The notes: generated by a model not told the origin, from the sequence alone. A stretch of 64,000 nucleotides of DNA from Psilocybe cubensis (GCA_017499595.2 CM039002.1:806001-870000); one strand, 5' to 3'; numbered from the stretch's first letter, positions 3,555 to 41,300 are shown. Made by a program: numbers and translations.

Positions 3555-4082
3555 GGGTGTCAGGATGAAAGCCAATTTTTTTGATTTGGTCCCACTATAT
3601 GTTTCAGCCGCACTAAAATAGGCAGAAAATCCACGTGTACTTCGGACAACCAAACTTGTTCTTCTACAACTACTGTTGGCACTCAGTACTCAACAACGAC
3701 TGCGCAAACGGTTACTATCCACCGTTCAATGCCTTGGTTGCTTATACAGACGAGGCTATGTGCTCTTAAGATACCATACACCTTCTCTTGCTCATTTCGA
3801 CGATTTTCGCTCCCGTGCTGCGTGTGAACAACTCATTGGAGGATCAGGTAGTGATGGTCTTGGCAACCTAAAACGCCCCTCCCCTGACACTGTGGGAATA
3901 AAAAACAATATTTATTAATGGACCATTTTCCTTAGCATATGGTGTTGCCGCGCAGCAGAAATACCAAAATATTTGCGGCAAATTATGCCGGTAGTTATTT
4001 GTCAAAGTCGCCCTAAATCATGATGTAATGAACGGAGCAGAAATTGGGTTGACGACATTCGGATAAGAGCGAGCCTAGAAGC

Positions 4083-4390
4083 GCCCCATATTTAGTGGTT
4101 CCGGCACGCACCATATTCTGGGTAGGGCGGCAAGCCCTATTTTTCGGCGCTTCGGCACGCACCATATTGGCAGGCACCATATTTCGGCGCTTTGGAGCGC
4201 ACCATATTCGGGGTATGGCGTTATGCCTGATATTTCATGCTTCGGCATGCGCCGGGTTCCCGAGCACCATATTTTGGCGCTTTGGCACACACGGTATCGC
4301 TGCCACCAAGTTTTGGTGTTTGGCACACGCCATATTCAGGATATGGCAAGCATCATATTTTAGTGCTTTGGCAAGCACCATATTTCAGTG
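4083..4390 (+). repeat. Left subterminal repeat array of the transposon
   Basis: Exact GCACCATATT at 4108, 4159, 4174, 4199, 4264 and 4375, plus near matches, often followed by TCGGCGCTT/TTGGCGCTT. Confidence 0.85.
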
Positions 4391-4689
4391 CTTAGGCTAA
4401 CAGCTCTTATTAATGTTTTATAAACAATCCTAATATGATGAATTTTAGTACAGCAGATTTTGAAGCGTATTAGACGATAGAGCAAGCAAAGAATTTATTG
4501 CAAATAAGCAGTAGAAAAGTATAAACGCGGGCCAGATACATTAAAAAGGTTTAAAGTAAAGCAAAAGAGGACATGTTAGGGGAATAACCCAATAGCCTCA
4601 CGGAATATCCTGTTCAATAAAAACAACTAATAAGAAAGACTGCCACCGACATCAGTGCATACAGTAGCGGCGGCGTATTCAGCCCTTTC

Positions 4690-6960
4690 GTCCTTCTTCA
4701 AGCGGTATGCTTCCGACGTATAGACCTACGCAGAGGCTGATCTAAATGTTAGCAAATATTACCGACCATTAAAACATGATTATACCAAGTTCTCCTTTTC
4801 GCCCTCGTTAGGATCCGCAGCCCGTCTCTTACGTTTTTTTCCAGCCTTCTCGTCAACCGGTTTTGACAAATTGTCAGCCAAAACACCTCCATTGCGGGCA
4901 TTTGGACTGGCGCTGGGTTCCATAGAAGGGTTTGCAGGATCAGTTTGAGTTTCATTATTGACCGTTGTTGATGAGTTTTTGTTCGGGGTGTTATTGCTTT
5001 TTGAGGGGAGATTCTCGTCATCCGTTGAGATTTCAGTAATAGTAGAAAGCTCGCCATACAAATATGCAGACTGTACAATCATCACAAGTATAAGCAGAAG
5101 GAAAAAGCGGTTATAGTCAAAATTAAGAGCATACATTGAATGCTGGCTTGCAGGGAGTTTTTCGCTGGAGGCGTGGGGGTTTTGATGTAAGCTGATTTTC
5201 CGCCTGCGCCTGCATGGCTTGTAATGAATTACTGCCCCCCGCTGCTCGGAGCGGAGTTTGAGGAATAGGGCATGATGGCTGAGGAGTATGGCACCTTGGT
5301 TGTACTTGCTCTATTGGGGCCTAAAAGAAGAAAGAATGTTTAAGCAAAGGGCAATAAATGCAAAGATTAAAAACGATAGAATACTTCAAGATATTGAGGA
5401 TTTCGCGTTAGAAGTGCTGAAAAAACTTGATGTAGAAAGTTATCCACGGAATTCATCTCATCATTATCGTCAAGATGACCATGATGCAACTTCCCAAATG
5501 ATGCACTTTCCCTCCGAATTTTGTCGGCGTCGTCGTAGGCACAGTTCATATCTTCCATAATAAGCAGGTTGACGACGTGGGGGACCATAACCATGTCGAA
5601 AAATGATTCAGCGTTGAACGCCCGACTTTTACGCACAGATTCTGATAAATTTGTGAATTCATCCCAAAATCTATATGCATCCTCTGACGAATATGCTGCC
5701 AAAGCGTCCTCTTGTCCAGAGATCTGTTCCACCGGAGATTTGAGTCTGTACAAACCTATGTCAAACGTACTGTGGACGAGCAACTCCGTAACATAGTTTA
5801 AATCGCCGTCTACAACAAGCTGAGTCCAATAGCTTGCAATCAGACTACGCACAATAGGACCATAGCTAGCCAATATTTTAGTTACGTAGATAATATATTG
5901 GAAGATGCAATGAACGTACTATCCTGCAGATGCCACATTATAACAATACGGCGCTCTCTTGTCTAGTTGATTTAGGAATGATAATTTTGGGGTTTTGCAT
6001 TTAAGAAGCATTAAGCCCACAAATCTTCGCCATGGCAGAGATGTTTCGAATCTTGCACAATCCGTGCCGGAGCCTTCGAATATCATAGGGAAATTGTGCT
6101 TTACGTGAAGCTCAGCGATACGGTCGGCTACCTGGTCATAATCAATCTCGGCCACCGGCCAACCATTGCTGCGTGCAGCATCCAGCGAACTTGTCAGTCT
6201 CTCTTTGGATCTGAAATAAAGGTGGCTGCAGAGGAGCTGGCTTTTGAAGGACATATTCTGGGCTGCTTTGAGACGGTTGCGATTGTTGGCAAGGCGAAAC
6301 TGGGCACGCGCAACGGCATACTCTTTCATTATCATTTTCAAAGAAATATCTATCTCATCTTCAGGCGGGATTGTGTGATGGGGGTCGTCGGATTTAGAAC
6401 AACCTTGATGAGGGCATGATTTGATAGAAAGGTAATCCGAGCCATCCAATACGATCTAGACCGTTAAGAGGGTCAGCATATACCCAATAGAGACGGTCGA
6501 CACTGAAATAATCCTGTACCTCATTCTTCTGGAACGTAGCCTTCGGCTGGGACGTAGCCTTCTCCTGGGACGTAGCCTTTGGCTGGGACGTAGCCTTCGA
6601 CGTAGCGTTCTCCTGGGATGTAGCCTTGGCCTGGGATGTCGTGTTCTCCTCAGAAGTAGCGTCTTCGCTGGGCGGAATAGTCTAAAGGTACGGTGATCTT
6701 TCAGTCAAAAAACAGATAGAGTGTGTAGACTTACCGTTGATTGTGATACCTCGTTATTACCGTCATTTTTCTGAGCGCATATCACGAGCACAGGGGTTAG
6801 AAATGTAGAAAGATACCGGCACATTTTCGAATGCAAACCTTTGCTTTCTTTTTGGCTAGTTCCTCAGCCTCAAGACTAGCTGCTTCAGCCGAGCGTTTCT
6901 GCAAAATGTGAGATTAGATAAAGTAAACAATATGCCATCCAATTAAACAATACATACCAT
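4690..6960 (-). CDS. RTC4-like domain protein (transposon cargo); possibly the 3' half of one gene starting at 9176; outer coordinates approximate
   Basis: Removing the GT-AG intron 5866-5919 joins ORFs 5919..6449 and 5367..5873 into ASAGYYGPIV...FFDMVMVPHVVNLLIMEDMNCAYDDADKIRRESASFG. This matches the RTC4 domain pattern GYYG...LVP...LIMED...ES..YG. Confidence 0.65.
6529..6672. repeat. Degenerate 18-bp tandem repeat (CTGGGACGTAGCCTTCNN), encoding KATSQ[PE] on the minus strand
   Basis: About 7-8 imperfect units read directly from the sequence. Confidence 0.8.
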
Positions 6961-7197
6961 ACGCTTAATCTCATGTATAGATTGCAAAGATTTGACTACT
7001 TTGCTCTAGAGTAGGTTGAATAAGGCTCTTTTTGAGAAAAAAAAAACAAAAATGATAGCACACCTCTTGGAATGTAGTAAATTGTTAGTAGCAAAAAATT
7101 AGCATAATAAATAAAAATCATTCATTACCAACTACGGTACCGTTAAATTTACGCGGCAAAGTAGCTGTGGAAGAGCCAACCTCCTATACAGTAGTCA

Positions 7198-9176
7198 TTA
7201 GCGGTGTTTGTATACTGAAGGCATGTATTTCCAACCTTTGATTTCTGAGAATAAAGATGTACAATAAAATGAAGCGCAGCGGTTGGTAAGATATGAGCCA
7301 TACCTCTTTAGACGTACGCTCTTTTGAAGCGTTGGGGTCAGACTGTGTGGAGGCCTTGAGAGGCTCTGGGACCGGAGCTCGATTCTCTTTTTCAACTTCC
7401 TGAAACTCGGGGTTTAGGCATAAAAATTAAAACATCGGACTTGAAAAAAACACGCACATTGTGAGCTTCAGGCTTGGAAGAACCGGGTTTTCGTCCTGCT
7501 TTGGACTTTGCAGTTGACCAGTGGAACTTGAGAGTGGAAGCTTCTTCTTGCACAGGACTGGGCAAGGCGGTCAAACCAATTGCAGGAAAGGCAGTATTCA
7601 TATTCTAGATAGCGTTCTGTTAAATTTATAACCCACGGCATAATCATGATGCTTGGTACCTGTATTTCAGAGTTAGAACGAAGCGGCTCTTTGCCTTTAT
7701 TCTGGATTTTCCCATATAAACATTGAGCAAAAAATGCTAGGCAAAATTATAGAAAATAAAGAGCACCTTGACACCCTTGTTGGCCTTTGCAGTCACTTTT
7801 GAATTTAAGACTCTGTCCTCTTCATCGGATTGATCGCTCTCGACAAACTTAAGCTTGCGTTCCTTACGCGTTACAGATCCAGGGGTCTTCATAATCGATC
7901 GTGGAGGAGGCTTGGATTTGGGAGTTGATGAAGGGGAGACGTGACGCTCTTTTCGCCGACCGGTCTTTGTGCGAGAATCTTGAGGTTTAAGCGCGGGTTT
8001 TGATGCCTTTTCCTAAGCACGCTCCAAGGTCAATTACACTGGCATGCATTAAATTAACGCCCTCTTACACGAGTAGTATCTTCTTGATGGTGTTTCTTGG
8101 ACTTGCCTGCCAAATCCTCGTCGTCGGCGCATTCCTTGTCATTGGAGCATCCCTCGTCATCTTCCACGTTGTTGAAGACGTGATTGAAGTTTTCCTCGTC
8201 GTCCGAGCTGCAACTAATATTGTCCATCTCTACTTCAACGGGCCCAGAGTCATTAGCAGCCGTTCCATCGCCAGCATCATCTCTAAGGACCTCAAGACGA
8301 GCGCCCTGAATGGTTGCAAGCGCCTTAATATATTTCTTGATGGCTTCTCGGTCAGGTTTCTCCTGTGAGTTCTTTTCATCCTCTATATCTTTGGTGGCCG
8401 TTGCAGAAAAATGGCTAAGAAACTGTTTCAAAAATTCGTCGATGGGCCAGGCGTGACTATATTCACGAAAGACCTTGGCATTTTTGATAGCCTGTACTCA
8501 TTTGGGAGTCAGTAGGTTATACGTGCTTAAATAGTTTTTGAGAGAATCACATACCCGTTCTTTTGCACATCTTATTTTGTCTCTTGATTGACGTCTAAAC
8601 GGTTGGCGAACATCCAGGTACTGGAAGGCAGCTAGCTTGACTATCCGCTGAACACAACGGCATTTTGGTCATCATGGGCGCACGTAACATCTGCATAAGA
8701 AGCTCACATTGAGACGCAAGTAATGTTCTTTTGTCAATCCCATGGCAAGCTCGAGGTTAAAGCCGCCAAAGGCCTCACCGCGTCCTGCCTGGCCAACGGG
8801 ACGAGGTATTAGCCTATCATCCTCTTGGTCCTTAGCTACCTTGCATTAGAACATTTAATCCGTCATTTTAAAATCAACACGCACATAATTGATATTTCAG
8901 GTCTTTTACGACCTTGTCTTTCTCTGCTAACTCTTTTTCTTTCTGAGCCAATTGCTTAATCAGCTCTTCTCTTGAAAGTAGGCGGGGTTCCGAGGAATTT
9001 TCAGCCCCGGAGGAGTTTGCTTTCGAAGAGTTTTCAGGCCCGGTGGAAGGGTTGGGGTTTGCTTTCGAGGAGTTGTCAGGCCCCGCGGCGGAAGGGTCGG
9101 GGTTTGCTTTTAGGGGTTTTGCAGGCCTGGCGGCCCTGGACGGGTTTTGATTTGCTTTTGATGATTTCGGCGGCAT
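7198..9176 (-). CDS. Multi-exon hypothetical protein (coiled coil, small helical domain, acidic/basic low complexity); transposon cargo
   Basis: MPPKSSKAN start with SSKANP repeats. Spliced exons include LIPRPVGQAGRGEAFGGFNLELAMGL and VFREYSHAWPIDEFLKQFL. GT-AG introns; 3' end unclear. Confidence 0.55.
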
Positions 9177-9441
9177 GGAAGCTAGGAGGCGAAGGTAGTC
9201 GCTGTGTACTGTTCAGTTGAAGTTTCAGAGGTATATAATGCTGCGTTGGCGGAAAAACTCGGATTATGGGCACCTGCCCAGCTAAAAGATAATATACGCT
9301 AGTCCTTATTTGGTAGCATTATATGCGGGGGCGCGATGTTTGGGGTATACTCTCACGTGAGGTTGTTCTAAGCGTATACCTGGCGGTTTGCGTCGATTTC
9401 AACTTCCAAGTCCCAAAAGCCCAAGTCCTGACAAATACAGC

Positions 9442-10027
9442 ATGTCCTTTAACGTAGGTTATTTCTCCGGAGGCCATTATGTTACCTAAACAACCGATGG
9501 CATTGGGCTAAAATTCTATACAGAAACACAACTGCGTCAATTCTGCAGACGGTAAACGTCCCGATGCCCCAGTCGACGTACCACCGGCGAGCCCAGCGTG
9601 CATTTGTTGCGTTTTACTTCCGATGGAGGGCCTTTTGAACACAAATTCGGTCGATAGCAGCTGCTTGCAGCCAACCAATTCCTCAGATACTACGCCCGCG
9701 GAACCTGCTTACGGCCAGCTGCCCACCATCGAATGCGTCTGCGGCTGTATATCGCTCCAGCAAACAGCCCAGGCTGCGTCCAGCAAACAGCCGCATCAAG
9801 TTAAGAAAAAACCCGTCCAATCAATCCCGCTTTGGCGTGCCTTTGTGCAACAGGTACAACCTGCCGTCCCTCCGAAACAGCAAGCCGTAGCCTCCTGCCA
9901 GAATCCTTTGAAGGGCGGGGTAAAACGGCAGGATACCCTTATTGTTGAAGACTTGCCTAGAAAGGATATAGGAGGAGAGAAACCCCGTTCTTTAAAGCGT
10001 AGCAATACGGAAATCTTCATTTTATAG
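9442..10027 (+). CDS. Small hypothetical protein, probably spliced; transposon cargo
   Basis: ATG near 9442 with a GTAGGT...CAG intron, then ORF 9623..10027. No recognisable domain. Confidence 0.35.
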
Positions 10028-10099
10028 TACGATAAGGCTTTGGAGCAGAAATAATATATCTACATGCCTTTATGCTACCAATATTATTACCCGGCCGCT

Positions 10100-13000
10100 T
10101 CAAATTTGAATATCTGCTAAATTGTCAGAAGCACTCAGGTTGGAAAGCAATGTGGTCCTACCAGAAAGAGGTAAAGTCAGCTGGGAAGTAGCCCAGTTGT
10201 TGATGGTCACCAGCCGTTGTCGATCTTGTGAATGACTAGTCTTGCAAAGATGATGTTTAGACAGATAGGTCTTAGACCACGCTTTGATATGCTCCTGCTT
10301 GATAACAACATTCTTGCCGCGACAAAGAACATGTTGATTGATGTGAAGGCCGGCTTCCCATGCGCAATCCAAAATGAGAACTTCTTCTCCCAGGTAATCT
10401 ATCAACTCGCGAATAAACCAAGCAGTCCATTGGCAGTCAACAGGCGGAAAGTTAAACCAGTGCTCAAGGATGGTCGAACAAAATTGCAGAACGCAGGTCT
10501 TCGAAACGGTGTTATACTTAAAAGATCGAGGAGCGTAGATGTAAACGGATTCTCTTGGTTGAAACCCGCTGATAAAGGAAGCGGCGTCGAACTCCGCATT
10601 TGTTTGTACAGCCAAAACTTCTTCAACCCGTCGAACCAGTACACCCAAGCCATTTGAGATGTCGTCCTTGCTACGATAGGCTTGCTCGAGGACGCTGTCC
10701 AACCACTCCCATAATAGAACGTTGGAAAGGAGAAGCTGCTTTTGTTGGAATTGGAGATCAAGTTTCGAAATTGTCTTCTTCTGGCTGTATGAAGCGTATA
10801 ATTGGCAGGCTCTACGGATGTCACATGAAATCACAGGCTGACTGAGAATTTCGGATATCAAAGACACGTCAAGCCACTTTGACTGCCCTTGAGAGGGAGT
10901 GTTATCGATTGGGAGGTCTTTTAATGCAGCCAAAATTTTTGATATGCATTCTGGCCTCAAAGCGTTCAAAAATTTGCTTTGTCCTATACAAAAGGAGCGG
11001 TCAGAAACCTTGAATTCAGGCTGAAACAGCGGAAAAAATTGAACCGACCTAGGGATGTTACCGAACTGCTATTCCTGGTAATTCGTTCTTTAGGAGCAGC
11101 ATTTTTCTTGGAAGCTAATAGTTTTGTTTGCACAGCGGACATTTAGTAAGGTTTGAACTGACGAACCTTTCGATTTTGTGACCGTAGAATCTCTGTCTCC
11201 ATGTAGATTGTCTTCGAAGTTCAGATTGATATCTGGCCCGGAGTCGCTTTCGGGATCCTTGCGATGGCTCATTCGGCGAGCCTTGCTTGAGGTCAAGGTC
11301 TCTAAATTTTTGCTTGTAGATATTTGAACTCGACGGAGACAAATAATACCTTTACATACGTTGTGATGTATTTCTACGCTTTTTGATAGGTAAATCCATT
11401 TCAGAAACATCCCTAGTCCGTGCCCGTTTAACCGCTCCTGTGTATGTGTCAGTTATCAGGACGATGAAAGCATAATAAAAGTAAGCAACTAACCCTTGCG
11501 CGAACCTGTTTTGCTCTGTAATCCAATCACGGCTTCTTCGTCGTGGTCTCCAGCGGTTACACACAAAGGAATAGACTTTGCTGAGCTTTCCATGTGTTTT
11601 TCCCATTCTTGTACAGCCTCTTGGAGTTCAACGTTACCGTACGGTGCTTCGGACATAGAATCCGAGTTACAAAGCCTTGCAAGATTCTCTGACGAAAGAT
11701 CCTCGATGGATGAAACGCCTAATCCACTGAGGATGCCTGAGTAGTCGGTACCGATTTTGACATCATTGCCTCTCCATCCGGGACCCAGATCCCACTCATC
11801 CGCCGTAACTCTCTTATTATCGATAACCACAGAAACCATTTTCATGGCTAACGATTTATCAACGCGTGGAATCAATTCAGGAGGCAACTGACGGGCAAAA
11901 TGCGTGATTGCTTGGAGAAGAAGTCGACTGAAGTGATTGATATGAGCCTTAGGAGAAAGTAAAGAACCTCCGTCCGCGGTCCATGTAGCTTGCTTGCACA
12001 TTGGCGTCTTCGATAATTTGTGCGACCTAAATTTCATTTAAGATGCTGGGCATGATGTAACGTTTATGCTGACAGACGTACACTGGATTTCGCATTTCAA
12101 TACCGATGGCAAAAGTTGTATCATTAACTCCAGCCGCAAAAGCAACGCTATCAACCCCGTCAATTAGTTGACCAGGAGGGTAACCAATGAGAGTTAGGCG
12201 ATAGTAGATTTCGTTGGGTTGTTGGACGTAAATGGGTTGATGACCTCCATGGAAATGGAGACCAGAGAAAAATATGACGGAAAACTCCTCCATGAGATAC
12301 GCCAATCCGCAGCATAAAATGTAAAAGTTTTCAGGCGCCACGTCGGCCCTGTAGCGACTGAGAACGTGCATACAAGTTGGAGCACCTGAACTGTCGGCAG
12401 CGTCGACATGTGCCATCCCAAATTTTCCGAGCGAGGATTCCAAGGCAACATCTAAGCCAAAAATGAAGTTCAGATTGTATAATAGTTATGCGGGACACAC
12501 CATGCTGTGGAACTCCAGGAGCTACATTCAGTTGCCAAGACGGCCAGACGCAATTATCATCATATCCTACTGGCGCAAGCGAGGCCACCTCGGCTTGACG
12601 CTTCAGGCGCTGGAACAAATGCTTGGATGCTTTCTTAACTCCTTCAATGCCAGCTTTTGCCCCAGCCTGAGAATGCCATCAATTGACGTGTAAAACGTTC
12701 AGCGAACGACGTACTTGAAGTATATTGAACCGCATTTGCAAATCATAATCCCTGGCCTGAGTATACACTTTGCTCTGAACTCCTGGAGCGCTGAGGGACT
12801 TCTGTGCCTGTAGGGTTGATCCAAGGGTGTAGCATCGAGGACCGGACTTGATATTAACTGCGCGATCGCTTCGTTCAAACTGAATACCCCCCGAGTACTC
12901 TCCGTTTGTGTCCTTAACGGGTTTCTGCGAAGACATAAGTTCTTGAGGCCCCAAGATTTCTTCCTGAAGTCTGCGGCATTCTTGAAGGTCTATTGGATCT

Positions 13001-13750
13001 CGCTCATGTCTGACGGTTGTTTAATCACAAAATCAAACGCAAAAAAAAGATCCTTACTTGCTCAGTGTCCAGGATTTAAGTACATCGTCTCCAGGAAGCC
13101 CCGAACCGTATCTATCGCGTTCTAGATAAAAAATGTTGTCGCTTGGTTTTATGTATAGCATTCCTGAAAAATAGAAAAACTGTCATTGCCGGCGGGTGAA
13201 TTACAGAAAGGGATCAATCACCTTGCATCTGTCCTTCTGCTGCAGTGCTCGGTACCTTCAAATTAGCGGAGTAATGGAATCTACGCCTCATCGCGTCCAT
13301 TGACCAATCGGCAATGCCCAGGATGATCCGGGCCTTGGGGTCGTCGACTTTAGGGTGAGATTCAAGTTCGTATAGCACCGGAAGCCGAGGGTCGCGTCCA
13401 ACAAGTTCCGTCATAAGGCGAGATCCAGCAGGAGCGCCAACTTCGATGCGGCTGACGTGAGAAGACGGAGTCGCATCCAATTGTTCAATAGTCGGACTGG
13501 TCTGAGGCGTTAGACGACGTGTCGTAAGGCTGGATCGAGAAGGAGAAGTATAGCTGCCCGCAGCTCGAGATGCAACATTCGATGGCTCAAAAGTTGTAGT
13601 CGTACGAGGCGTTCGGGGTTTAGAAACAGGAGCCGGTGTGGGCACTGACGCTAATACTCTGCGACGCAATACTGGACGGAGTGACTTTGGTGGAGGAGTG
13701 GCCGGCGCCGATGCAGTTGGGCGACTTTTACTTCTGGTCTCAGCAGGCAT
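10100..13750 (-). CDS. TET/JBP-family 2-oxoglutarate/Fe(II) dioxygenase-like protein (transposon cargo)
   Basis: ATG at 13750 and spliced exons. Core reads WQLNVA...GMAHVDAADS (HxD)...SVIFFSGLHFHGG (distal His)...YYRLTLIGYP (2OG-binding Arg), the order and spacing of the TET/JBP double-stranded beta-helix. Joining of the C-terminal exons is inferred from GT-AG sites. Confidence 0.7.
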
Positions 13751-14796: not shown

Positions 14797-14839
14797 GATT
14801 TCGAAATCCATGCCGAACACCGGCATGGATTTCGAAATC
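14797..14839. repeat. Perfect hairpin 1 (19-bp stem, 5-nt loop)
   Basis: GATTTCGAAATCCATGCCG-AACAC-CGGCATGGATTTCGAAATC. Confidence 0.95.
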
Positions 14840-24021: not shown

Positions 24022-26182
24022 GTATGGTAAGTTTACGGCTGCGAAACCGAGGCACGTTTTCGCAACTTGTTCCTTCCCTTGATGGTACAAACACAACAGT
24101 CAAGCAGAAAATCGCCGTATGTACGCAGTTTTGTACATAGTTTCGGGAGAACAGTAAGCTGATACGACCTCTTGACTGACAAATTAAGGTATTCATCGTG
24201 CTTCCCGGCCCAGCGTGAACAACACCCCTCGTCTCGCTTCCCATACCCACCCTCACCTTCGTCGCAGCATCCCCATGATTCATAATATAGCACATTAAAG
24301 TCTGTACACTCAGAGACTTGAGGCACAATGACACAATCGGCAGTGAGAGGGGCGGAGGATGCGGGGCTTGGTCGTCTTCCTGAGCGACATCCCGCTGATA
24401 GAGACAACTCACCATCATCGATCAGCACCTCCCTTGGGCGTGGCAAAACAGAGAAAAAGATGTCTCCAGCATTATCGTAGTTATTAATTAAGCATACTCA
24501 TAGCTACATACACATAAAATTTTGCAAGCTGCTTGTCTTGAGGTCTCGTCTTTTTGAATGGTCTGCACCTCCAAGTTGCTGCTTGTCTTTGTCAATAGAA
24601 CAGTAATTATGGTCTGGGGTCAACATCATGAACGACCGCTACGGCTTTCTCACTGAAGAGCTCAGTCTGACGCAGAGGTCAGTCGTCCTCACTCTGCTTT
24701 CTAACTCCTCATTAACCTTCATATATATAAATGTAGACTTTAACGACGAAAACAAAATCCTCTTCTGACAGTTTATTATCTATGAGCAGCGTGGGGCGAG
24801 TTCCGGGAGTCATTAGAATGCTGTGATCGCATACAGGAAATCACATTGCAGCAGCCTCCGAGTTGCGCAGGTTTCAGGAGCGGCCGATGGACCGGCGGAC
24901 GTTCCTACATTGGGACCACCATCCGCCTACCTACCTGAAAAGCTGGCTTGCCAACGTTGACGTTAGGTCCCAGATCGGGCATGTTTGCGAGCTGAAGGAA
25001 AAAGGTAAGCTTTTCCTTCTAATTTTCTTCTTTTTGTATACCTCAATCTAATTCATTGTGGCGCATGTGGTTTCTATTGGAGGAGCGTATACTACCAGCC
25101 TAAATTTAACAAGAATTACAAAGGCTACCCGCAGACTGTCTACCGAGATAGACCGAAATCCCGCTTTTTGGAGTTCGATCAACCTTCTCGACTTCTCAAC
25201 CAGTTCCAGACAACTTCGGTCATACTACTCATCTTAGACGGCATCTGTGCCCTGCAGTACATCGAGGAGCAGCCGAAACCTTCATCACCCGCCGTTCATC
25301 AGACACTAGATTGCTCGTACAGCATTCCGGTCGCCTTGAATCCTAACGACGAGCAGCAAAACGCTGATTGTCCTGGGATATTATGAGCAGCAAGTGTTTA
25401 CGGGAGAGTATCGCCATTCTTAAAAACGCATCGATTCTGTGAGTGTGTTCTATCACTGTCAGTGTCATCTTTGATTTTAACATCCAAAGGCTCAGGCACT
25501 ACCGATAAGATTGTTGAGACTCGGTAATGACGCGCTCAAACGACAAAGTTTACTTTCAATGCGCGTGCACCTAATTCCCAGCCTATTGCACGGTTTCTTG
25601 GTCCTAAAAGTGCATTACTATCCACTGTAAGCGTTCAAATTCCTGGATTTAGAAGCCAATATATATATCTAGGATAGTAAAGTGGAACAATGAATTAATT
25701 AAAGCGTTCTGCTGCTCGTCCCAGCCGTTCAACACGACGACAAGCGGCTCATTGATCCGCTCGTCATCCTCCTCAACCCCCTCTACACCTGCCGCGCCGC
25801 CTTCCACCCAAATGACGAGCAGTCGGGGTGGCATGAAAACAAAGGAACGCGCATTCTGACGCGCCTAGCGTGATCGTGCAGGACGAGAATCAGGACGAGA
25901 ATTAACACGTGAAGTGGTGACAAAGCAACAATATCGGCATTACGTTCGAAGCGGGACGACACTCATGCAGGTGAAACCGCGTCTCATAGCAGGTGCAGCT
26001 GCATACCCAAGGCTGGCCGAAAAGAAATCGAACCGAGCCGCGAGACAATGTTGAGCCGGATGGGAACTTGAACAAGGAAAAAGCAAGGGGTACCTCCGGT
26101 ATAGTCCTTCAATGTGACTCTCTCCAACCATCCTCTCACTCCTTTCCGAAGTTCTGCATAGACGCCGAAGCACCGTAGCAAT

Positions 26183-29100
26183 ATGCCCCCCCCCTCTGGT
26201 AGGTAGTTCGCCTTTCGCCTTTCGAAAATACGCTAATACTGATCACCTGTGTTTGGCGTGCACACCAACGGTAGATGAAGACCACCAAACCGTGACCAAG
26301 TAGAAGAGTGGCGCCACCACCAAGTTTGACCATGGGGATGGTAATGATTCGGATGGCTCCAGTCGCGACCATTCAACACATTCTGAAGACAACGCCCAGC
26401 ATTCAACCAAACCCGACGCCTCATTGCCCTCTTTCAAAGCCATCCCAACCTCGGGCACGTTAACCTCCTTCACGAGCCCCATCGACACTGGAACCACCGC
26501 ACTCTCTACATTGGCTGCCATCGCCGACGCTGCCGACCCCACATCCCCTCCCGCTAACGAGGTAGCATCCATCAACGCCGCCGCCGTTTCGGTTTCTATC
26601 ATGGCCTGAGCGTCATCATTTGTCGAAAAACCCCCTGTCTCGTCTACTGCGTCATCGGACGTCGCTGCTGATCCGTCGCGTTCGAGATTGCATACCCCGA
26701 GGCGGACGGTAACAGCGGCGACGAATCGAAGCCACGCAAGGGCAAGGCCAGAGTTCGAGCGAATGTTAGAGTTGGCAAGGCGAAACCTCGGGGGAAGCCC
26801 TCTGCGCCAGCTGCTGCTGCGAACGAGAAGAAAGAGAACGGCGTCAAAGTTAATGGCGCCGCCTCTTCCAATCCTTCGGTCGATTCTGGAGACAACATTC
26901 CTTCGCCAACGACGAAGAAAGGCCCTCCTGTACTTCAGATTGATACTACTGTCGAGGAGCCTGCGGACGATGCGGCTGCTGCGATTGCCGATGACGACGA
27001 TATGGACGTTTCCATGGAGCATGAAGACGCCGAACCAGAGGAGGAGGAGGAAGAAGAGGAGGAGGAAGAAGAGGAGGAGGAAGAGGAAGAAGAGGAGGAG
27101 GAAGAGGAAGAAGAGGAGGAGGAAGAGGAAGAAGAGGAGGAGGAGGAAGAGGACGGTGAAGAAGAGCGTGAAGAGTCCACCCATGAAGAGGAGGAGGCAG
27201 AACCTGTTGATGGAGAAGCAGCCGACGGTGAGCAGGAGAACGAAGAGGAGGCGGTCGAAGGAGAAGGTGACGGCGAGGAGAATGAGGGTGAAGGAGACGA
27301 AGACCACGAGAACGAGCAGGACCAAGAAGATGCTGAAGCCGAACAAGACAATGAAGAGGGCGAAGAGGGCGACAATGACGAGGATCCTTCGCCTGGCGAT
27401 GTAGACGCCGATGTCGAAGATCACGATGGCAATTTGCAACCTGCTCATCGCGCGGAAGCCCTAGACGTTTTGGCCACCATTGAACTCAAATTCGCTCTAC
27501 TCAGAGAGCGAGTATATGTGGAGAAAATGGAGGGCTTAGCTTGGGAAGAACTCATGGTTCAATCTGGTAAGTTCTGTCGTCTATTGTTCACATCCGCTAG
27601 GTTTATATCATTTTATCTTGTTATAGCTATACATCCGGAAATGCTACATTTACAAAAAGAGCTTTCCCAACGAAGAGACAAGCGCCTCGAGCTCGCTTCG
27701 AGGAAGCGCTCCTACGAAGTCGCCAACGCGGAAGCTCGTCGAAAGGCGGATGAATCAGGAGTTTGGAGCTGGTGGAAGGTAAATATGGCTATCATCTAAA
27801 TTCTAATCTTACAACGTCTAATACTTGATTTTCTAACACCAACAGGTTGCCAGAGATGATCTTCAGACCGAAATGATCGCTGAAATGAGCAGAAAGCGAC
27901 GCCGAATGGAAAGGGATAGACGAACAGCTGAGAAACATCAACCGCGTACGCATCGATTTACGTTTATTTTCAATTTTCATACTAATTGGAGTCTGTTTAG
28001 CACGGCGCATTCCAGTGCAGCAATACATCGCTGTTCCACCTCCATTGCCTAATATGCGCAAAATCGTCAAATCTTATCCGTTCGGAAGTCGAAAACATAA
28101 TAAAGCTGATGCGCATCACCATCACCACGCCCACCACCCTAAAAATCTGGTGTATCCTGAAATATCCACCCTTTCTGCAACAGACATTGCCAACGACCTG
28201 GAATTCTTGTTCCAGAATAGCAAAGCGTCCGCCGCGTACGACGTTCAGCAATCTCTTCATTCGCATCATCATCATCCCCAACAAACCTATTCATCATCTT
28301 TCGGACCTCTCCCACCACGAAACGGAATCAGTGGCATGGGTGTGGGCATGGGCAGATCATCCAGTATGGGTATCACGTCCAATGGTCCACCTCTATCTTC
28401 TCATATGCCTCCGCCATCATCAATGGGGCCTCCTCATTCCAATTCAATGATGCAGCCGCATCAGCACGGTATGGGGTATGATCAGTACGGTGATATCCCA
28501 CCATCCTTCGGTCCCGGAGGGCCACCACCACCACAGGGTAGAATGCGCGATCAAATGAACAGTAATTCATATCCCCCACAGGGACCTGGAGGCATGATGC
28601 CGGTTGGACCTTCGTCGAACAACTCGAGGGACCTCAACTCGTACTCGAATTTCCCAGGCGCAGGCGGACGCTCGCAGTCGCATTCTCATGGGCCGCCAAT
28701 GCCTATGTCGGGTGGAGGACATGGCAACGGTAACGGATACCCTGGAGATCATGAAATGAGTAGTATTGGTCCTGGTGGACAAGGCAATTCTACAGGAGTT
28801 GGGCACCAGATACATCCGTACCATCCGTACTTCGGTCAAAACAGCATGGGCCCTGGGCCAGGTAACCAACACTCCCAGCAGCAACAGCAACAATCTCATC
28901 AACCACCTCCACCGCATATGTCAAGCCATCACAGTGAAAATGTGAAGAGTGGGATGAACGGCCGTAGGTCAGTGTCTCCTGGTCCGATGATGTCGAATGG
29001 TGCTCGGAGTGGCCATGGACCCGGTGCCAAGTCGAACGGCAATTGGATGGGAGCAGGCATGGGTATGCCCTCATATAACCTATGTGGGGGTGGGGGTGGC

Positions 29101-30783
29101 AAGGGAGATTGGGACCCAAGGCTATTGCAAGAAGAGGAAGAAAGAGAGCGGATGGCTCGAGATAGGGACCTTCGGGAGAGAAAGAGAGACGCGAACGCGA
29201 ACGCGACAATATGGAGTGCGAGAGGATTCGAAGAGACCGAGAATTCCAGAAGATGGACCGGGAGCAAGAGAAGACGCGAGCATCACATGCAGCAGCAACA
29301 TCGTTCTGCCCTGCCAGGTTCGTCGCACCCAAGCCTTTCACATTTGCATGCTGGTTTCACAGGTGGACCGCCCCCGCCCCGTCCGCCCCAAAGATCTGGC
29401 ATCATACCCTTCATCACCACCATCGAATCCACCATCACCACGTCGTTCATCACCATCACGGGCAAGCGTCGCAGCACGCGTCGTCCTCACTGCCGCCTTC
29501 TAGGGGTCCACCTGCCTTCATACACAGTCCGAGGTCGACTCGAGATTACGAGAGCTCGCGGCCTCCATTGCTGCATGCCAGCTCAGGACCCAGCCATTCT
29601 CATTCAACGGAAATATGGAAAGGGAGTCTGGTCATTGGTCATCCAAAAATACAGAAGACCGTCATCGCTCTCATCTTGACTTCAGAGACAGAGATCGGGA
29701 CCCAAGGGACAGAAACAGAGACAGAGAGCGGGAAAGGGATCGAGAAAGAGAGAGGGAAAGGGACAGGGATTCCAGGAAAATTCTTCCTTCAAGACACTCC
29801 TCTGGCCCTCCTATACACCCTCTCGACGACCGAGGCGATCGACCCATGGCTATGCCCTTCGTCATGGCGTCCTGTCAGGCTATGCAACAAACCTCTGCAG
29901 GCTCGTCCTCCGGCTCTCACATGAACGGCTTATATAGGATTAGGTAGTTCTACAGCTTCTCCTCGAGGCCCGCCGTCCTGGAATACACCTGCCGGACCAG
30001 AAGAACCATCGTATCGCATCCCTTCTTCTTCCTCTGCTCCTCCGCCTTCAGGCCCATATCTAGGATCTTCACCAATCCAAACGCACCGTTATGTATCTAA
30101 CAGCGGCCCACATGGTCCACCTCTATCTCGCATGCCGAGCAACAACCCCTCTTCAAGTCTGAGCAGAATGGCATCTCCTTCAATCCCTCCAATTACCAGT
30201 AGTCGCACCCGGCCACCCCCGAGTCCCTCTTACTCTACATCGATGTCAAATTCACATCGCTCCCCAGTGACCAGGTACGCTGCTGACTGTTAAATTAACT
30301 TTTTTTTAAAGGCACTAATTTCAAACAATCGCGCAGTCCCAAATCCCGGCCATTGTCGCCCCCGCCGCCCAGCGGAAGCAAACAACTTCTTTCTGGACCT
30401 TCAGGATCAGGTTACTCACCTTCACCACGCCTGAGTGGACCTGGTCGCACCTCCACGCCGATTGGACACCATCCGCCACCGTCGCCGACGTCGTCGGGGT
30501 CGCTGGCAAACATCCAATCGGAGGGGGTGATGAAAAACGGCAGTCACCATCCTCGTATCCCGTCAGCAGCCGCACGGCATCGCCTCTCATGTCGTCATTA
30601 CATGCGCCCCTGTCGGGTTCGGGCAGACCGACGTCAAATGGAATGGGCGGAAGCAATGCATTAAGTGGCGGGTCTGATCGTGATCGAATTGAGCGGGATC
30701 GGGAGCGACATGCGGTCGCTGCTTCATCGCCAAGGCTGGGATCTACAGTGGTACACCCACCACCGTCGAAGTTGAGTGCATAG
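26183..30783 (+). pseudogene. Sds3/Dep1-like (Rpd3L/Sin3 HDAC complex subunit) gene copy, disrupted, inside the transposon
   Basis: Sds3-like segment HRAEALDVLATIELKFALLRERVYVEKM...HPEMLHLQKELSQRRDKRLELA after a poly-Glu tract; introns retained. In-frame TAG at 26301 and TGA at 26607. Frame switches near 26690 and several between 29180 and 29650. Confidence 0.7.
27038..27151 (+). repeat. GAG/GAA trinucleotide tract (poly-Glu)
   Basis: About 38 consecutive Glu codons in ORF 27002..27799. Confidence 0.95.
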
Positions 30784-31650
30784 TGCAATGGTATTATTGA
30801 ATAATTGTGGACATACAGTATATCGTTTTCGTATTTTTTTTCCTATTATTTTCTCTTCGTTTTCTGTTTCTATATTTTATTGTATCATGGTATCTTACCC
30901 TTATTTTGTTTCCCTCCCCTTCTTCTTCTTCTCTCTCTCTCTGTCCTGTTTCATTTTTATCGTCTCATACCTCATCTTCTGGTAGCGCTGATCACCCTGC
31001 TGATCAGCCGTGGCCTGTGGATTCAATCGACACATGGAATTCTCAATCCGCGGAAATGTGCGTACCTTTATCATGCTTTGAACTCAGTTTTCTAATTATT
31101 GCACATACTTTGATAGTTTCGATATTGGGGCCGGCATTACGACTAGCGGAAACAACCTTGGGCAACATATCTACGCCCAAATTCAGTCAAGAGCGGTTTC
31201 TGCATCGGATCCAGCCGATATCGAAGAAGATGGTGAACTCGACTGGCTAGCCAAGTCATTCCAATCAGGTAAGGTATCAACAAATCCTTTACCATCTTTG
31301 CTTACCTTTTCTCGAACTTGCAGTGGTGCCCAATGATCACAACATGCAGGACTTGGATACCGGAGACAAGGGTCAGTAAAGATTTTCAACGAGGTCGCGG
31401 CAGCAGCAGCGAGCGAACCGTCTCCGAATCCTCGTTTTCAGCCTCTTCATATGAAGTTGGCCTTGTGCATTCTGAGCCAACAACTCCCACATCAGTAAGA
31501 ATTTCACTCATAGTCCATATTTCTGCCTTTTAACCAGAAATTTAAATAGCCTGATGCGCCGAAGGGACTGTTTCCTGCTTCTCCACACAGTACACCGCCG
31601 CAGTAGCTCTTACACTCTACGAATTCGATTATAGAACCGCCCAGACTGCC

Positions 31651-32641
31651 ATGCGCCCTGTTATCAGCCTGGACCTCGATGAACACGCCATCAGCATCCC
31701 CTCTTCCTCGACTCCAGGGTTCATTCATGCCGCCGAAGTTCGATCTAGTGGGCCGATTTCACAGTGCTCTCCCGTTATCAGCTTTACCTCCAACCGCTTT
31801 TCGACCGAAGCGCAGTACCGCTGTGTCTCGGACGTGTACATCGATGGAAACCAGGTCTACAGCATGCCTGCGCACTTGCAGCTGTGTAGTGCCAGCTCGG
31901 ACGGAATGATTGTTTACAAGATGGAACTTGGTAACGACGTCTGGGCGATTCTTACGAGGGACTCTGATGGTGCGTCTTCTTTATGCGTATCCGCGCTTGA
32001 TTACGACCTTCGGTACTTACTCTTGATTAACAGTCCATTCATCTTATACCATGACGCAGAACATCTTTACGGTGTCTACTGGAACGATTCACGACGAGAT
32101 TCCTGTGTTCTCTATCAGCTATAAGTGCGTTGAGCACGAAATGCTCCTCCGCCTTCAAGATGCCGATGAAGCGCGCCAGTACTTGCATGGCAACGTGTAC
32201 TTCAACAGGAACCCCAAAAAAGTGTACATAGGCTGCGAGTTGATTCCTGGAAAACCTGGTACCTCCTGCTTTGGGCTTCGTTTTGGGATGAACTCTTGTA
32301 GCCAGGTTATGAGGAGATGCGAGGGTAAAGTCAACGATGGGCTATTGCAGGCGGTGATAACTCTCTCCCTACAAACTAACTCGAATCGGCCACTACGAAT
32401 ATACGCGGATTCGTCGCAGTTCACTTCGCTCATGACTGTGAGTGCGGGCGGACAGAGTTCAGGGATTGGTCAGGGAAAAACGGAAAACTTCTGCGCACGG
32501 CATGCACTATTCTCCGGTGTCACTCTACAGCATATCATGCTAGGGCGTTTATATCACAATAATATGCTATTTCAAGAAACATTATATCACAATACTATGG
32601 TATTTCAAGAAACATTATCGTACAAATTGCTGATAAGATAA
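31651..32641 (+). CDS. Hypothetical protein, probably two exons; transposon cargo
   Basis: ORFs 31651..32124 and 32051..32641 can be joined by a GTGCGT...CAG intron near 31970-32033. There is a 33-bp tandem duplication at the 3' end. No recognised domain. Confidence 0.4.
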
Positions 32642-33025
32642 ACTAAGCAGTGATTTATTTACAAGTCCAAAAGTAAAAGCCAATACGAAAGCATGATGAA
32701 AGCGTAGGAGAGTAACGTGTCAAAACATGGAATAGTCGTCCAAAAAAGCGGCTTCAAAAAACAAAGGGAATGTGAAGTAAGGTATTACGTCGAAAAGGAA
32801 AGTCATTCACGATTAACGACGCGTGCACAAGGGATGGTATGACGTATTGATGTTGCATTGCAGGGACGGGCTAAGTGGCGAAGGCCCTATGCGTCGTATG
32901 GGTCCACGGGATGAGTGGTGGGCAGTAGTGAACGCGACTGGGAGCGGTGGTTTCGTCGCAAACGTGGGACCGACGTAGTAGATGGTTGTCTGTCGCTGTG
33001 GTCCTCAACGTTCGCTGGCGACTCT

Positions 33026-33337
33026 TTATATAGAGTAGTTAGCAACTGGACTAGTTGGAATATATCGGAGCAACGCACCTTCTACATGTGAACCCGCCTC
33101 TACATTCTTTCTCAATCTCCTCTCCCTCAACCTCTCGTACAAATTTTCTTTGATGTTCTCCGGCAGAACTTCCTGGCATCGGTTGTAGAGCCAGAGGCGG
33201 GCTTTCTCGATAATGGCCATAATGTCGCCGAGGAACGTCAGGACGATGCACAACATCCCACCAATGAAGATTGGGACTACCATCACGAGATTAAAGTAGT
33301 GCGTCGCTTTGTCCACAGGGATGTTCAAGTCGGGCAT
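33026..33337 (-). CDS. Small single-TM hypothetical protein, transposon cargo
   Basis: 103-aa ORF with hydrophobic segment LVMVVPIFIGGMLCIVLTFL. Confidence 0.4.
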   Translation of the reverse strand: MPDLNIPVDKATHYFNLVMVVPIFIGGMLCIVLTFLGDIMAIIEKARLWLYNRCQEVLPENIKENLYERLRERRLRKNVEAGSHVEGALLRYIPTSPVANYSI

Positions 33338-35648
33338 GATGAGTAGAATGAGAAAATTTAGGATGGTAAGAGAGGTTGAAGGAGTAGTTTTGAGGGAGGA
33401 TGTGAGGGAGGTGGAGGTTATTGGAGAAGAGGTGTGTATGTGGAAGCTGTGCAGGTGAGCAGGCTCTTAACAAACGTTGACAAACGAATCAATATACTCA
33501 GATAGAAAAGTTTTGTACACTAATCATATGGCTAGGGTAAGTTAAGTACTGTACGCGATCAGGATTTTTACTTTCGTTATACATTTCATTGACCTTTGAG
33601 GTTTTCCTTGTGCTTCGAGGGAAGGAGGGAAAGAGGCAACAAAATCGAATAGTTAATTAAGATTCGATGCAAACGTCGCTCATGGCCTCGATATCGTATA
33701 CCAGGTTTTCGCACTTACCCAACGACTTCGAGCTCTCGAGGGCCGTGTACTGCAACACATCTCTTCCATTTGCTTTACCTGTTTGAAGCGTCGTCTTACG
33801 GTTTCTCTTAGCGCCCAATTTTGTTACTTGGTTGCGTTCTTACACATGTAAAATTATCTGTATCACGCGCCCCTAAATTTGCTGATTTGAAGTGCACGTA
33901 AATATGTAGTATCAAAATCGCACTAAATATAGTTGTCTGGCTAACAGTGTGTCCAATACTCCACAAAATACTGTTTAGTTTCCCAGAAAATGTGATGTAT
34001 TGCTAAAGCACTAATAATAATAATTTCATTCACACCAAAATGTCTTCTTTCCGTCATATCAGCTATTTTTATTGGTTCTAAAACGCCAAGCGATCATGTT
34101 TCAGCTTTCAGCATGGGGAAAGGTGATTAGATCAATAATTATGAGTGTGAAATTTGTCATTGTAATTTTCAACAGCATTTTTTATTGGACAAATGGAGCA
34201 ATCGCTATTCGCTCAGTATATTTTAGTGTTCTTGGGTCCCACAGTGCTGACAGCCTGGAGTCCACGAATTATATGATGATCAGAGTTGATGGTGGCCTCT
34301 GTTTCAGTGCACAATCTGCTGTGTAGAAGGGAATTGCGGATAACATCAACTGTAGCCTGTAGGCCTCTTGTGTTTTGGTCGACACCAAGTCCGACAAGAC
34401 CGACGACCCGGATCCCTTGCCTTCCATTCAAAATTTTGAGTTGCCGTTTGACAGGGGTTATTTTGAGCATTAGGATTATGAAGAGGTACCGTGACAATTC
34501 TCAAGCTTATGTACATGGAGTGTTCGCTCACATTATTTTGTCAATCAGAATTCCCCTTTCATATCTTTGTGACTATTGAAATACTAGTAGGAGAACTCTA
34601 TGATATTGATCTTCGGACGAAAGCTATTAATTCGATGATGAATAGTTGACCCAAAGTTGACCATTGACTATAAGATGCAATTCGGAATCCGGTAGTCGTT
34701 GGCTGTCGTTGGCAATCTCGTCATATCTTAGGATGTCGCGAGAACAAAACCAGAGGAGCGTTTTTGGATTGGTCATTCAAGATCTTAAAGGGATGTACCA
34801 AACCAGACGTACCGTATTATTCCTGCCCGATTGCGAGGACCAACTGGAAACCAAGCTTTCAGCAAACAGTCAAAACTCTTTGATTCAGAGGGTCCGATGC
34901 CGAGTTATAGAGCATCAACATCGTGTATGCTGAATGGGTCATGGGTGAATTAGATGCTCGCCGCATTTGTTAAGTTGAGTTCATAAGAACAAATAACTCG
35001 TTAGAATAATGACCTTATTGGAATGGGAATGGGGAAGCTGCTACCTCGGTAGTGGCTGTCAAAAATTATTGCTATGATCAGTGCGGCAAGCAAAGTGGAT
35101 GGTTTAAATTTTAGTAGGCATCGGGATCCGCGAATCGGGGCTACGTGTTTCGACGTGGACGTGATCAACGATAGGTTAAGTAGGCAGGCATTTCTGAAGA
35201 CTCAGCGCTATTCAGAAGTTTTCCATTAACTGCAGTGTGAGTGCTGGTAGAAATTTGTTGTAATATAGAAGTCAGAGACCAGCGCTTCTCGGTCGATTCA
35301 AGGTCGGTGGTTCGTGAGAAAGTTTTAATTAACCTATTTTTCTTTTCTACTGTGATCCCCCAATCTCACCAAAGCATTACTTAGAGCTTCTAGGCCCCAG
35401 TTGATAACGGATCACTCATGATTTTCTTTACAGGGTCTTTGTCGAAAATTGACAGTCAATCAACTTAAAACGAAGGCAATACGCAAAGGCAACGTATAGG
35501 CAACGCAAAGCCTTGCTTAAGCTTTCCCTCGTGCATATCCAGAATGAATCGAAATCACCACCTCGCGAATCAATTTCCGGCGTAGCATGATATATATTCA
35601 TGAGGTAGCTTGAGCTGCCCCCTGCATCTTTCTCTCCTGTGCCCTACA

Positions 35649-39445: not shown

Positions 39446-41300
<1,855 letters not shown>

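Follow-up and report, generated by a model that had tools for sequence, protein, structure and literature searches.

Complete transposons encoding TET dioxygenases have been described from eleven lineages (Kojima 2025, PMC12730594). According to the main text of that survey, the TET carriers of Agaricales include EnSpm/CACTA, Plavaka, Zisupton, Kyakuja and Helitron elements, the last with Helitron2 (Agaricus bisporus); transposon TET genes are proposed to counter silencing by methylation, and Iyer et al. 2014 are credited with the original link between TET and KDZ (PMC12730594). Given these published transposons, neither the association with TET nor the anti-methylation idea is new. Here we analyse a stretch of 64,000 nucleotides from Psilocybe cubensis (GCA_017499595.2 CM039002.1:806001-870000), called the window below and numbered from its first letter, in which positions 3888–34246 form one DNA transposon of the CACTA/EnSpm-Mirage-Chapaev (CMC/CMCT) group, with perfect 10-bp terminal inverted repeats (TIRs) of CACTG type and a Tnp2-type transposase. 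It is a TET-carrying CACTA-group transposon grown to 30 kb that holds, in addition, an Spt5 paralogue and an Sds3-like gene: the TET link is known, the other passengers are not.

Like the TET-encoding fungal transposons of the survey's main text, the element is a TIR-bounded DNA transposon of Agaricales with a TET/JBP-like dioxygenase beside its transposase (PMC12730594). The PE-type TET of Agaricales EnSpm and Plavaka elements, both of the CACTA-related clade, possesses an HxE motif, whereas the family of the dioxygenase described here has HxD (E in 0/54 and D in 53/54 aligned sequences); its sequence shows no match to CcTet, a relative of the AG type, and the target-site duplication (TSD) of the element measures 4 bp as against 3 bp in fungal EnSpm (PMC12730594). 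The main text of the survey, in which we searched for Spt5 and not for Sds3 or RTC4, and which excludes the supplementary family table, contains no occurrence of Spt5; where it speaks of additional proteins, only more enzymes of base modification are meant (PMC12730594). Passages of another source hold nothing on extra cargo (PMC13289920). The sequence-only reading of this DNA had taken the combination of genes to be undescribed, and this has to be narrowed: TET genes in Agaricales EnSpm/CACTA are published, as far as the main text of the survey shows (PMC12730594), and we found no report of Spt5-like, Sds3-like or RTC4 cargo. A literature search for transposon-borne Spt5, Sds3 or RTC4, or for a giant CACTA element in Agaricomycetes, returned nothing relevant, the supplements of the TET survey, which possibly list the family, lying outside it.

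With enlarged or gene-capturing CACTA elements, the present transposon shares a Tnp2 transposase, CACT-type termini, subterminal repeats, a size far above the norm of one or two open reading frames (ORFs), and extra ORFs. A soybean CACTA element reportedly measures 20.5 kb, and Pack-CACTA elements are said to capture genes in Arabidopsis. Unlike those, the element described here carries apparently whole genes for chromatin and transcription factors, resides in a basidiomycete and spans 30.4 kb. En/Spm families of Chondrus crispus reach 16–20 kb with 4–5 ORFs, according to the passages available (PMC6431247).

In the sequence-only reading the element was also called Starship-like in scale, which holds for its size only. 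A tyrosine recombinase, the captain, moves Starships, most of which greatly exceed this element in size. The likeness consists in a large unit by which cargo genes are mobilised together, whereas the only mobility gene found here is a DDE-type Tnp2 transposase, and about 50 frames (of about 90 amino acids or more, in and beside the element) scanned against Pfam gave no tyrosine-recombinase match. With no captain among the frames scanned, we reject a Starship identity.

The inverted termini proposed earlier at 3888 and 34246 are read directly in the DNA; they enclose 30,359 bp, and each has CTGA on its outer side (Table 1). The CACT(A/G)...(T/C)AGTG arrangement of inverted termini that characterizes the CMC group is present, and related Tnp2 loci likewise terminate in CACTGTGG(G/T)(A/T)A. 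The canonical 3-bp EnSpm duplication is not found, as it is 4 bp long both here (CTGA) and in the closest complete relative (TCTT). The main text of the TET survey gives 3 bp for fungal EnSpm and 2–5 bp for the wider clade (PMC12730594); 4 bp falls outside the former but within the latter, and the element is therefore filed in the wider clade rather than in EnSpm sensu stricto. Taken within the window, the termini are inconspicuous: the terminal 10-mer alone is unremarkable (3 matches with at most 1 mismatch, 3.66 expected), and 2610 inverted 10-mer pairs lie more than 200 bp apart, 13 of them with identical 4-bp flanks. Only one of these 13, the 3888/34246 pair, starts with CACT. It is the evidence from outside the window, namely reads and relatives, that excludes a chance pairing.

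Subterminal repeats, which the sequence-only reading had noted, are clear at the left and hold at the right in a looser form. The motif GCACGCACCATATT (at most 2 mismatches) occurs in 7 copies, all on the plus strand, at 4104–4384, against 0.37 expected, and 0/100 shuffles reached 7. A looser motif, NATTT-N1-3-G[CT]G, which was defined post hoc from inspection of both ends, is present five times on the plus strand in 3888–4500 and four times on the minus strand in 33634–34246 (0.33 expected), the two terminal 613-bp windows being the richest of the 64 kb. The subterminal repeats expected of the CACTA group are thus strong at the left end, and are seen at the right end only with the looser post hoc motif.

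Public sequencing runs provided an independent view of the right part of the element, four of them being compared with 16501–36500. In one set of raw reads, from another strain (X13; both mate directions summed), depth was 85–160 over 16501–24504, 36–51 over 24505–27172, 71–125 over 27173–34509 (the bin containing 34246 included) and 29–36 in the right flank, 34510–36500, so that at the right end it drops from about 100x to about 33x. The flank depth fits a single-copy level, as estimated from 1,632 million letters read and the X1 and X5 contig sets of about 40–42 million letters, assumed to be near the genome size of the X13 organism. Exactly behind 34246, 72 X13 reads turn loose, and their consensus agreement is only 0.54; therefore several different flanks follow and the repeat terminates there. 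Mixed flanks of this kind are what one sees where a transposon has inserted at several sites and its terminus is reached. For the right end, the reads are a demonstration and bear out the earlier proposal. At 24377 and 24437, loose ends agree at 0.94–1, which means that the other copies share one different continuation, a sign of internal divergence and not of a terminus.

In related strains, at least 16.5–24.4 kb and 27.2–34.2 kb exist in several copies, whose flanks differ at the right end. The sequence-only reading had named, as an outcome that would speak against one element, that 24.5–34.2 kb might be syntenic host DNA; this is not borne out, since 27.2–34.2 kb is multi-copy and ends exactly at 34246 in X13. 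An internal-deletion derivative is shown by a joint from 28721 to 32297, skipping 3,575 bp, in one X5 contig and 13 X13 reads. The X1 contigs are identical to the window over 23707–26419 and 34149–36500, so X1 is probably the source strain. In X5, contig depth of the right 2 kb is 45–86 and that of the flank 10–14; contig depth does not equal copy number, and the comparison of X1 with X5 merely hints that copy number differs between strains.

Two further sets of read results were set aside. Nine runs contain 64–77% of the sampled words of window positions 1–10000, and these word shares (0.64–0.77) are uninterpretable as a sign of presence or absence of the element. Two X12 joints (27269 to 34858 and 26586 to 36472) were disregarded on account of their side of 22, very low depth and a large mixed run. 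As a separate observation, a 33-nt tandem duplication lies at 32549–32614 (94% identical), and 19 X13 reads skip one unit (joint 32548 to 32582), so the duplication is polymorphic between copies or strains.

The DDE-driven, Tnp2-type transposase named in the sequence-only reading was confirmed by Pfam: a 773-aa ORF at 21140–23461 (minus strand) matches Transposase_21 at 32.2 bits (cut-off 28.6), and the next ORF, 20729–21133, matches DUF4218 at 24.2 bits, under the cut-off of 27. The same Pfam scan gave no Plavaka or KDZ family matches at E ≤ 0.01. Iyer and co-workers are said to have placed TET/JBP genes in KDZ elements in 2014. The closest database protein is 48% identical to the transposase. 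Among 15 relatives, D434 is nearly invariant and D525 invariant, and the motifs CRSC, HGMLH and WMER were spotted by eye in a rough exon model of the transposase; our home-made exon models over-extend both ends and read through the whole 10-kb right arm, and they serve as rough guides only.

A profile built from the 15 relatives yielded 451 encoding stretches among 503 metagenome candidates, of which 80 loci, 1.2–14.9 kb long, were kept. In six of them (L002, L003, L004, L005, L013 and L044) the terminus CACTGTGG precedes the transposase match by 750–935 bp, and the terminus CACTGTGGGAAGTAAA of two others (L010 and L030) is similar to CACTGTGGGAATAAAA of the window. L003 contains the only complete CACTGTGG-type pair in the 80 loci, a complete relative at 213–9750 (9,538 bp) with termini matching at 12 of 14 positions and the 4-bp TSD TCTT; L005 holds at 5039–14276 a copy 94–97% identical to it. 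The left-terminal 30-mer had 0 exact matches in the metagenome contigs. The element is about three times the size of L003, its closest complete relative (30.4 vs 9.5 kb).

The RTC4-domain gene near the left terminus (Pfam RTC4, 42.1 bits on 5367–5918, cut-off 23.7; a PDB search with this ORF returned nothing) recurs in these relatives. L003 encodes an RTC4-domain ORF (37.9 bits, cut-off 23.7) at the end distal to the transposase and on the strand of the transposase; the RTC4 ORF of L005 is 94% identical to it at the amino-acid level, and the match in L010 is weak. In the window, the gene is placed relative to the left terminus and the transposase as in L003, which supports 3888 as the true left end. 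This end is supported only by sequence features together with the family comparison. The shared placement suggests that RTC4-domain proteins are a recurrent accessory gene of the L003/L005 transposon lineage, and the RTC4 gene is probably that lineage's own accessory gene rather than cargo. The claim of a giant cargo-carrying element thus stands as regards one TIR-bounded unit about three times as long as L003, and would lose RTC4 as a captured gene, which is probably native.

Table 1. Features of the element and its immediate boundaries (window coordinates; strand left empty where it does not apply).
Feature	Position	Strand	Basis and remarks
Left TSD copy, CTGA	3884–3887		Direct reading; same as 34247–34250
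Left TIR, CACTGTGGGA	3888–3897	+	Weaker match on to 3910 (23 nt, 78%); like termini of relatives
Left subterminal array, GCACCATATT-type units, 5–7 copies	4083–4384	+	Motif count; repeat families D3 and D6
RTC4-domain gene	4780–6681 (limits approximate)	-	Pfam; at least one short in-frame intron predicted
Gene of no assigned function with 45-nt tandem units (8999–9178) and a coiled-coil-like stretch	7198–9176 (limits approximate)	-	ORFs; repeat family D4
TET/JBP-like 2-oxoglutarate (2OG)-Fe(II) dioxygenase with long C-terminal region, about 1,100 aa (start uncertain)	10100–13940	-	tblastn, motifs, fold
45-nt palindrome, copy 1	14797–14841		Between the divergent TET-like and Spt5-like genes
Spt5 paralogue of about 740 aa with acidic N-terminus, NGN and KOW-type repeats; homology gives four exons	15115–17705	+	Pfam, phmmer
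Conserved further gene of no assigned function, downstream of the Spt5-like gene	18402–19981	+	tblastn with P0168 residues 720–958, 71–95% identity
Tnp2/EnSpm-type transposase gene	20008–23789 (limits approximate)	-	Pfam, relatives
45-nt palindrome, copy 2	23977–24021		Upstream of the transposase gene, facing the right arm
Copy-specific or fast-diverging segment	24437–27172 (limits approximate)		Near single-copy depth in X13
Sds3-like gene with poly-Glu tract and long low-complexity tail	26304–30750 (limits approximate)	+	Pfam; Sds3 domain at about 27461–27787
Two overlapping long ORFs of no assigned function	31555–32641	+	ORF list; no Pfam family
ORF of no assigned function, 146 aa	33026–33466	-	Only Pfam match insignificant
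Right subterminal copies of NATTT-N1-3-G[CT]G (n = 4), inverted relative to the left	33879–34042	-	Post hoc motif
Right TIR, TCCCACAGTG on the plus strand	34237–34246	-	Exact inverse of CACTGTGGGA; X13 loose reads
Right TSD copy, CTGA	34247–34250		Direct reading

The TET/JBP-like, Spt5-like, RTC4-domain and Sds3-like genes and the further ORFs listed in the sequence-only reading are all present. The two named homologues of the dioxygenase are P0015 of Psilocybe cyanescens, 60% identical, and P0016 of Pluteus cervinus, 46% identical. In tblastn, P0015 maps to 13555–11495 and P0016 to 13152–10253, so that this is a single large gene, whose long C-terminal region has no assigned function; nothing in the window matches the final ~340 residues of P0016 (1,287 aa). 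Searching exhaustively with P0015 gave 472 representative clusters at E ≤ 0.001, with 208 reaching 1e-10 and 51 reaching 1e-30. The HxD...H metal triad and the 2OG-binding arginine are present: in a family alignment of 54 sequences, H356 is found in 54/54, D358 in 53/54, H409 in 54/54 and R422 in 51/54, and the window's ORF 12027–12485 contains HVD and HFHGGH.

An AlphaFold2 model was made of P0015, the 60%-identical homologue and not the window's own protein (mean predicted local distance difference test score, pLDDT, 81; predicted template modelling score, pTM, 0.77). With this model, Foldseek placed NgTet1, CMD1 and CcTet on ranks 1–7 (E 1.5e-6 to 1.9e-4), the top match being NgTet1 (E 1.5e-6, template modelling score 0.53 by target); FTO and other 2OG oxygenases follow the TETs in the ranking, and TET2 has rank 44. 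In a protein-atlas feature search, a Tet_JBP cluster scored 0.93 with 194 shared features. The link between the putative dioxygenase and TET is given by fold and feature comparisons alone.

The Spt5 paralogue matches Pfam Spt5-NGN at 22.9 bits, marginally above the cut-off of 22.4; its P. cubensis homologues score 24.9–25.2 bits. In phmmer against PDB, a single alignment runs through residues 209–514 of human SPT5 (E 2.7e-9); yeast and plant SPT5 are also matched, and a plant RDM3/KTF1 chain is found at E 7.1e-6. Three Psilocybe cubensis proteins, 65–81% identical to the Spt5 paralogue, carry the annotations SPT5, NGN domain-containing or "RNA-directed DNA methylation 3"; their N-termini are identical, and they may represent a single locus or a few. 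A KOW region following NGN in the order of Spt5 is supported by the alignment to SPT5 209–514 and by the precomputed PF23042 of P0167, and direct Pfam KOW matches on the Spt5-like ORFs of the window are insignificant. The nearest atlas clusters carry KOW, KOW1_SPT5 and NGN. As a lead only, the atlas groups divergent NGN/KOW proteins of Basidiomycota in two clusters, with 125 and 82 members, separate from the cluster of canonical Spt5. The P. cubensis model P0168 fuses the Spt5-like gene to the conserved gene at 18402–19981.

Specialised Spt5 and NusG proteins are known from several systems. Plant SPT5L/KTF1 (RDM3) serves RNA-directed DNA methylation, bacterial RfaH-type NusG paralogues are encoded with long horizontally acquired operons, and the developmental Spt5 of ciliates is reportedly a specialised paralogue. 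The protein described here resembles these in being an extra NGN–KOW protein diverged from the housekeeping factor, those known examples acting on a subset of transcription units, and differs from them in being encoded inside a eukaryotic DNA transposon.

Differences between copies allowed a codon-position test, for which 40 listed differences out of 1,294 were examined and 27 used. Excluded were 11 in frames with stops (18402–18731 and 20487–20722) and 2 singles, in the Sds3-like ORF and in ORF 33026–33466, both non-synonymous. Within the last Spt5-like exon, 14 of 19 listed differences fall on the third codon position (binomial p 3.8e-4) and 11/19 are synonymous; in the C-terminal ORF of the transposase, 20008–20439, six of the eight listed differences are synonymous. 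These codon patterns show the Spt5-like gene and the transposase to be under apparent purifying selection.

The Sds3-like gene scores 48.7 bits with Pfam Sds3 (cut-off 25.4), covering profile positions 2–90 of 217 before a predicted intron; a PDB sequence search with its ORF returned poly-Glu matches only. From 27173 on, X13 depth over the gene is about threefold that of the flank, and because the Sds3-bearing right arm is multi-copy, this is not the host gene. A GAG/GAA (poly-Glu) tract occupies 27001–27390 of the ORF, 27030–27162 being masked as repeat, and reads indicate length variation near it (a joint going back at 27009). Further to the right, the overlapping ORFs at 31555–32641 coincide in part with the stretch 28722–32296 that is missing from some copies. 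In the left part, the gene at 7198–9176 has no Pfam family below E 0.01.

Exactly two copies of a 45-nt palindrome exist in the window, each with perfect arms of 19–22 nt and embedded in about 77 nt of 79% similarity. Apart from one half-site with 3 mismatches in L045, the palindrome was not found in the 80 related loci.

We propose that an ancestral unit of about 9–10 kb, with the transposase by one terminus and the RTC4 accessory gene by the other as in L003/L005, would have grown by gene uptake. Between transposase and RTC4 it would have taken in the TET/JBP-like dioxygenase, the Spt5 paralogue and two genes of no assigned function; another ~10 kb, with the Sds3-like gene and further ORFs, would have entered between the transposase and the right terminus. 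The transposase would cut at the CACTG ends and reinsert the whole 30 kb, giving rise to the 4-bp duplications. By oxidising methylated bases in the DNA of the element itself, the dioxygenase may counter methylation silencing, a role already put forward in print where transposons bear TET; the Spt5 paralogue may bind RNA polymerase II instead of or beside the host Spt5 and aid transcription of the element; and the Sds3-like protein may perturb or redirect the Sin3/Rpd3L deacetylase. The palindrome in both divergent promoter regions may co-regulate four neighbouring genes. Taken as a whole, one 30-kb unit of the CACTA group that grew by gene uptake and whose cargo acts for the element is an explanation we consider fairly probable. 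That the cargo forms an anti-silencing toolkit, as suggested in the sequence-only reading, is a plausible and interesting conjecture.

VANC of the Arabidopsis VANDAL elements is a transposon protein that removes DNA methylation from the element's own copies. The concept would be shared, whereas the proteins are unrelated, and up to three chromatin and transcription factors may be combined here. We also speculate, as an unlikely extension, that the cargo is a self-contained silencing-escape module co-regulated through the palindrome, comprising an element-specific Spt5 as processivity and anti-silencing factor for RNA polymerase II, a new TET-like eraser of HxD type and an Sds3-like decoy directed against Sin3/Rpd3L. 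Within such a module, the transposon Spt5 would be the eukaryotic counterpart of the RfaH-type NusG paralogues in bacterial mobile DNA.

Several results weigh against the explanation by one 30-kb unit with cargo acting for it, or against parts of it. As to the unity of the element, X13 depth near single-copy at 24.4–27.2 kb means that copies differ there, and the 5′ part of the Sds3-like gene may be absent from the differing copies. In X1, contig depth at 32.1–34.2 kb is 16.9 and that of the flank 15.9, and although contig depth does not equal copy number, the full right arm may be single-copy in this strain. The copy-number evidence spans 16501–36500, so that 3.9–16.5 kb with the RTC4 gene, the gene at 7.2–9.2 kb and the TET-like gene lies outside it; likewise, the read evidence covers the right junction, and the left end rests on sequence features. 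Regarding the ends, a TSD of 4 bp departs from the 3 bp canonical for EnSpm, the right end lacks an inverted copy of GCACGCACCATATT, and an empty site (expected junction CCTCCCCTGA|CAGCCTGGAG, the right side beginning CAGCC) was not observed. Concerning the cargo, TET-like, Spt5-like and Sds3-like genes were found in 0/80 of the related metagenome loci (E ≤ 1e-4; loci of 1.2–14.9 kb). Neither the dioxygenase ORF nor its family matched Pfam Tet_JBP (PF12851) at E ≤ 1, and PDB sequence and profile searches with them gave no TET chain at E ≤ 10; with neither a Pfam Tet_JBP nor a PDB sequence match, we therefore name the protein TET/JBP-like.

It seems possible, but on balance somewhat doubtful, that the element is real and its extra genes are passive passengers, host copies swept up without a role for the element and either in decay or of use to the host. 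CACTA elements are well known to capture genes, but the captured genes here appear to be whole, with long open exons and no fragments. The lack of such cargo in the 80 related loci suits passengers, as do the differences between copies in 24.4–27.2 kb and the loss of 28722–32296 from some of them; against this, the dioxygenase has kept its metal- and 2OG-binding residues, and P. cubensis keeps a collinear Spt5-like gene and its neighbour at 65–95% amino-acid identity. The codon evidence is divided: the sole listed difference in the Sds3-like ORF is non-synonymous (1/1), whereas those of the Spt5-like gene are biased to third positions (14/19). Finally, cargo genes and transposase have one palindrome in common in their upstream regions, which speaks against passive capture.

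Another alternative, which we regard as improbable, is that the 30 kb are a composite of two elements or fragments, the left one reaching to about 24.4 kb and the right one starting at about 27.2 kb, with unrelated DNA between them, the parts moving jointly only through outer ends that are compatible by chance. A near single-copy depth in X13 at 24.5–27.2 kb between multi-copy blocks of differing level (85–160 vs 71–125) is consistent with such a composite, but the loose ends at 24377 and 24437 agree at 0.94–1, as against 0.54 at 34246, which argues for shared sequence there and not for insertion sites. In the relatives the terminus lies less than 1 kb from the transposase gene, and here about 10.5 kb separate it from 23789, where the transposase frame lying furthest upstream ends; yet no family-like CACTG terminus exists near 24 kb, the best candidate, 23918, matching 15/30 positions and being passed by the multi-copy depth. 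The strong left subterminal motif does not recur at the right end, but the looser one is inverted at both ends, and the perfect 10-bp TIR with a 4-bp TSD at the outer ends is the signature of one insertion event.

That the 3888/34246 pairing is coincidental, within ordinary gene-rich DNA beside a smaller transposon, is virtually refuted, for although 10-bp inverted matches with 4-bp flanks are common (13 pairs in the window) and the 10-mer count is at expectation, depth and loose ends put the repeat boundary exactly at 34246, the terminal sequence fits the consensus of related Tnp2 elements, L003 likewise has a 4-bp TSD, and the RTC4 gene is positioned as in L003.

The insertion looks intergenic, about 200 bp upstream of ORF 2037–3689, since in-silico removal of the element restored no long ORF across the junction. 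The right flank contains ordinary host genes at 36567–37669, 40688–41113 and 58571–61776, for a protein kinase and a GH10 xylanase as well as two neighbouring ORFs of F-box-like type. Also outside the element, a 1,112-aa open frame at 46875–50213 (minus strand, GC content 0.56) has no Pfam family at E ≤ 1. Near the right edge of the window, CACTGTGGGTTAAAGG at 63012 (plus strand) resembles the terminal consensus of related Tnp2 elements, and three GCGGATTTGAGG copies stand at about 63208, 63252 and 63303; 63012–63320 probably represents the left end of a further CACTA-type element, which belongs to a different family and leaves the window.

The element at 3888–34246, found in a mushroom-forming fungus, is real and unusually large for a cut-and-paste transposon, and its cargo consists of genes that are apparently whole. 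TET-bearing transposons are the clearest fungal case of mobile DNA fighting methylation silencing, and the published examples are described as being, in essence, transposase plus dioxygenase. This element suggests a wider arsenal, in which paralogues of an elongation factor and of a subunit of a histone deacetylase complex travel with the dioxygenase between one pair of ends. If the cargo acts for the element, it would include the first transposon-borne Spt5, as far as our search of the literature shows, and would offer a testable system for an elongation factor specialised to a subset of genes as well as, at 30 kb, a natural experiment on how large a unit cut-and-paste transposition can move. 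Should the genes be mere passengers, the locus would still usefully illustrate how a fungal CACTA-type transposon captures whole genes.

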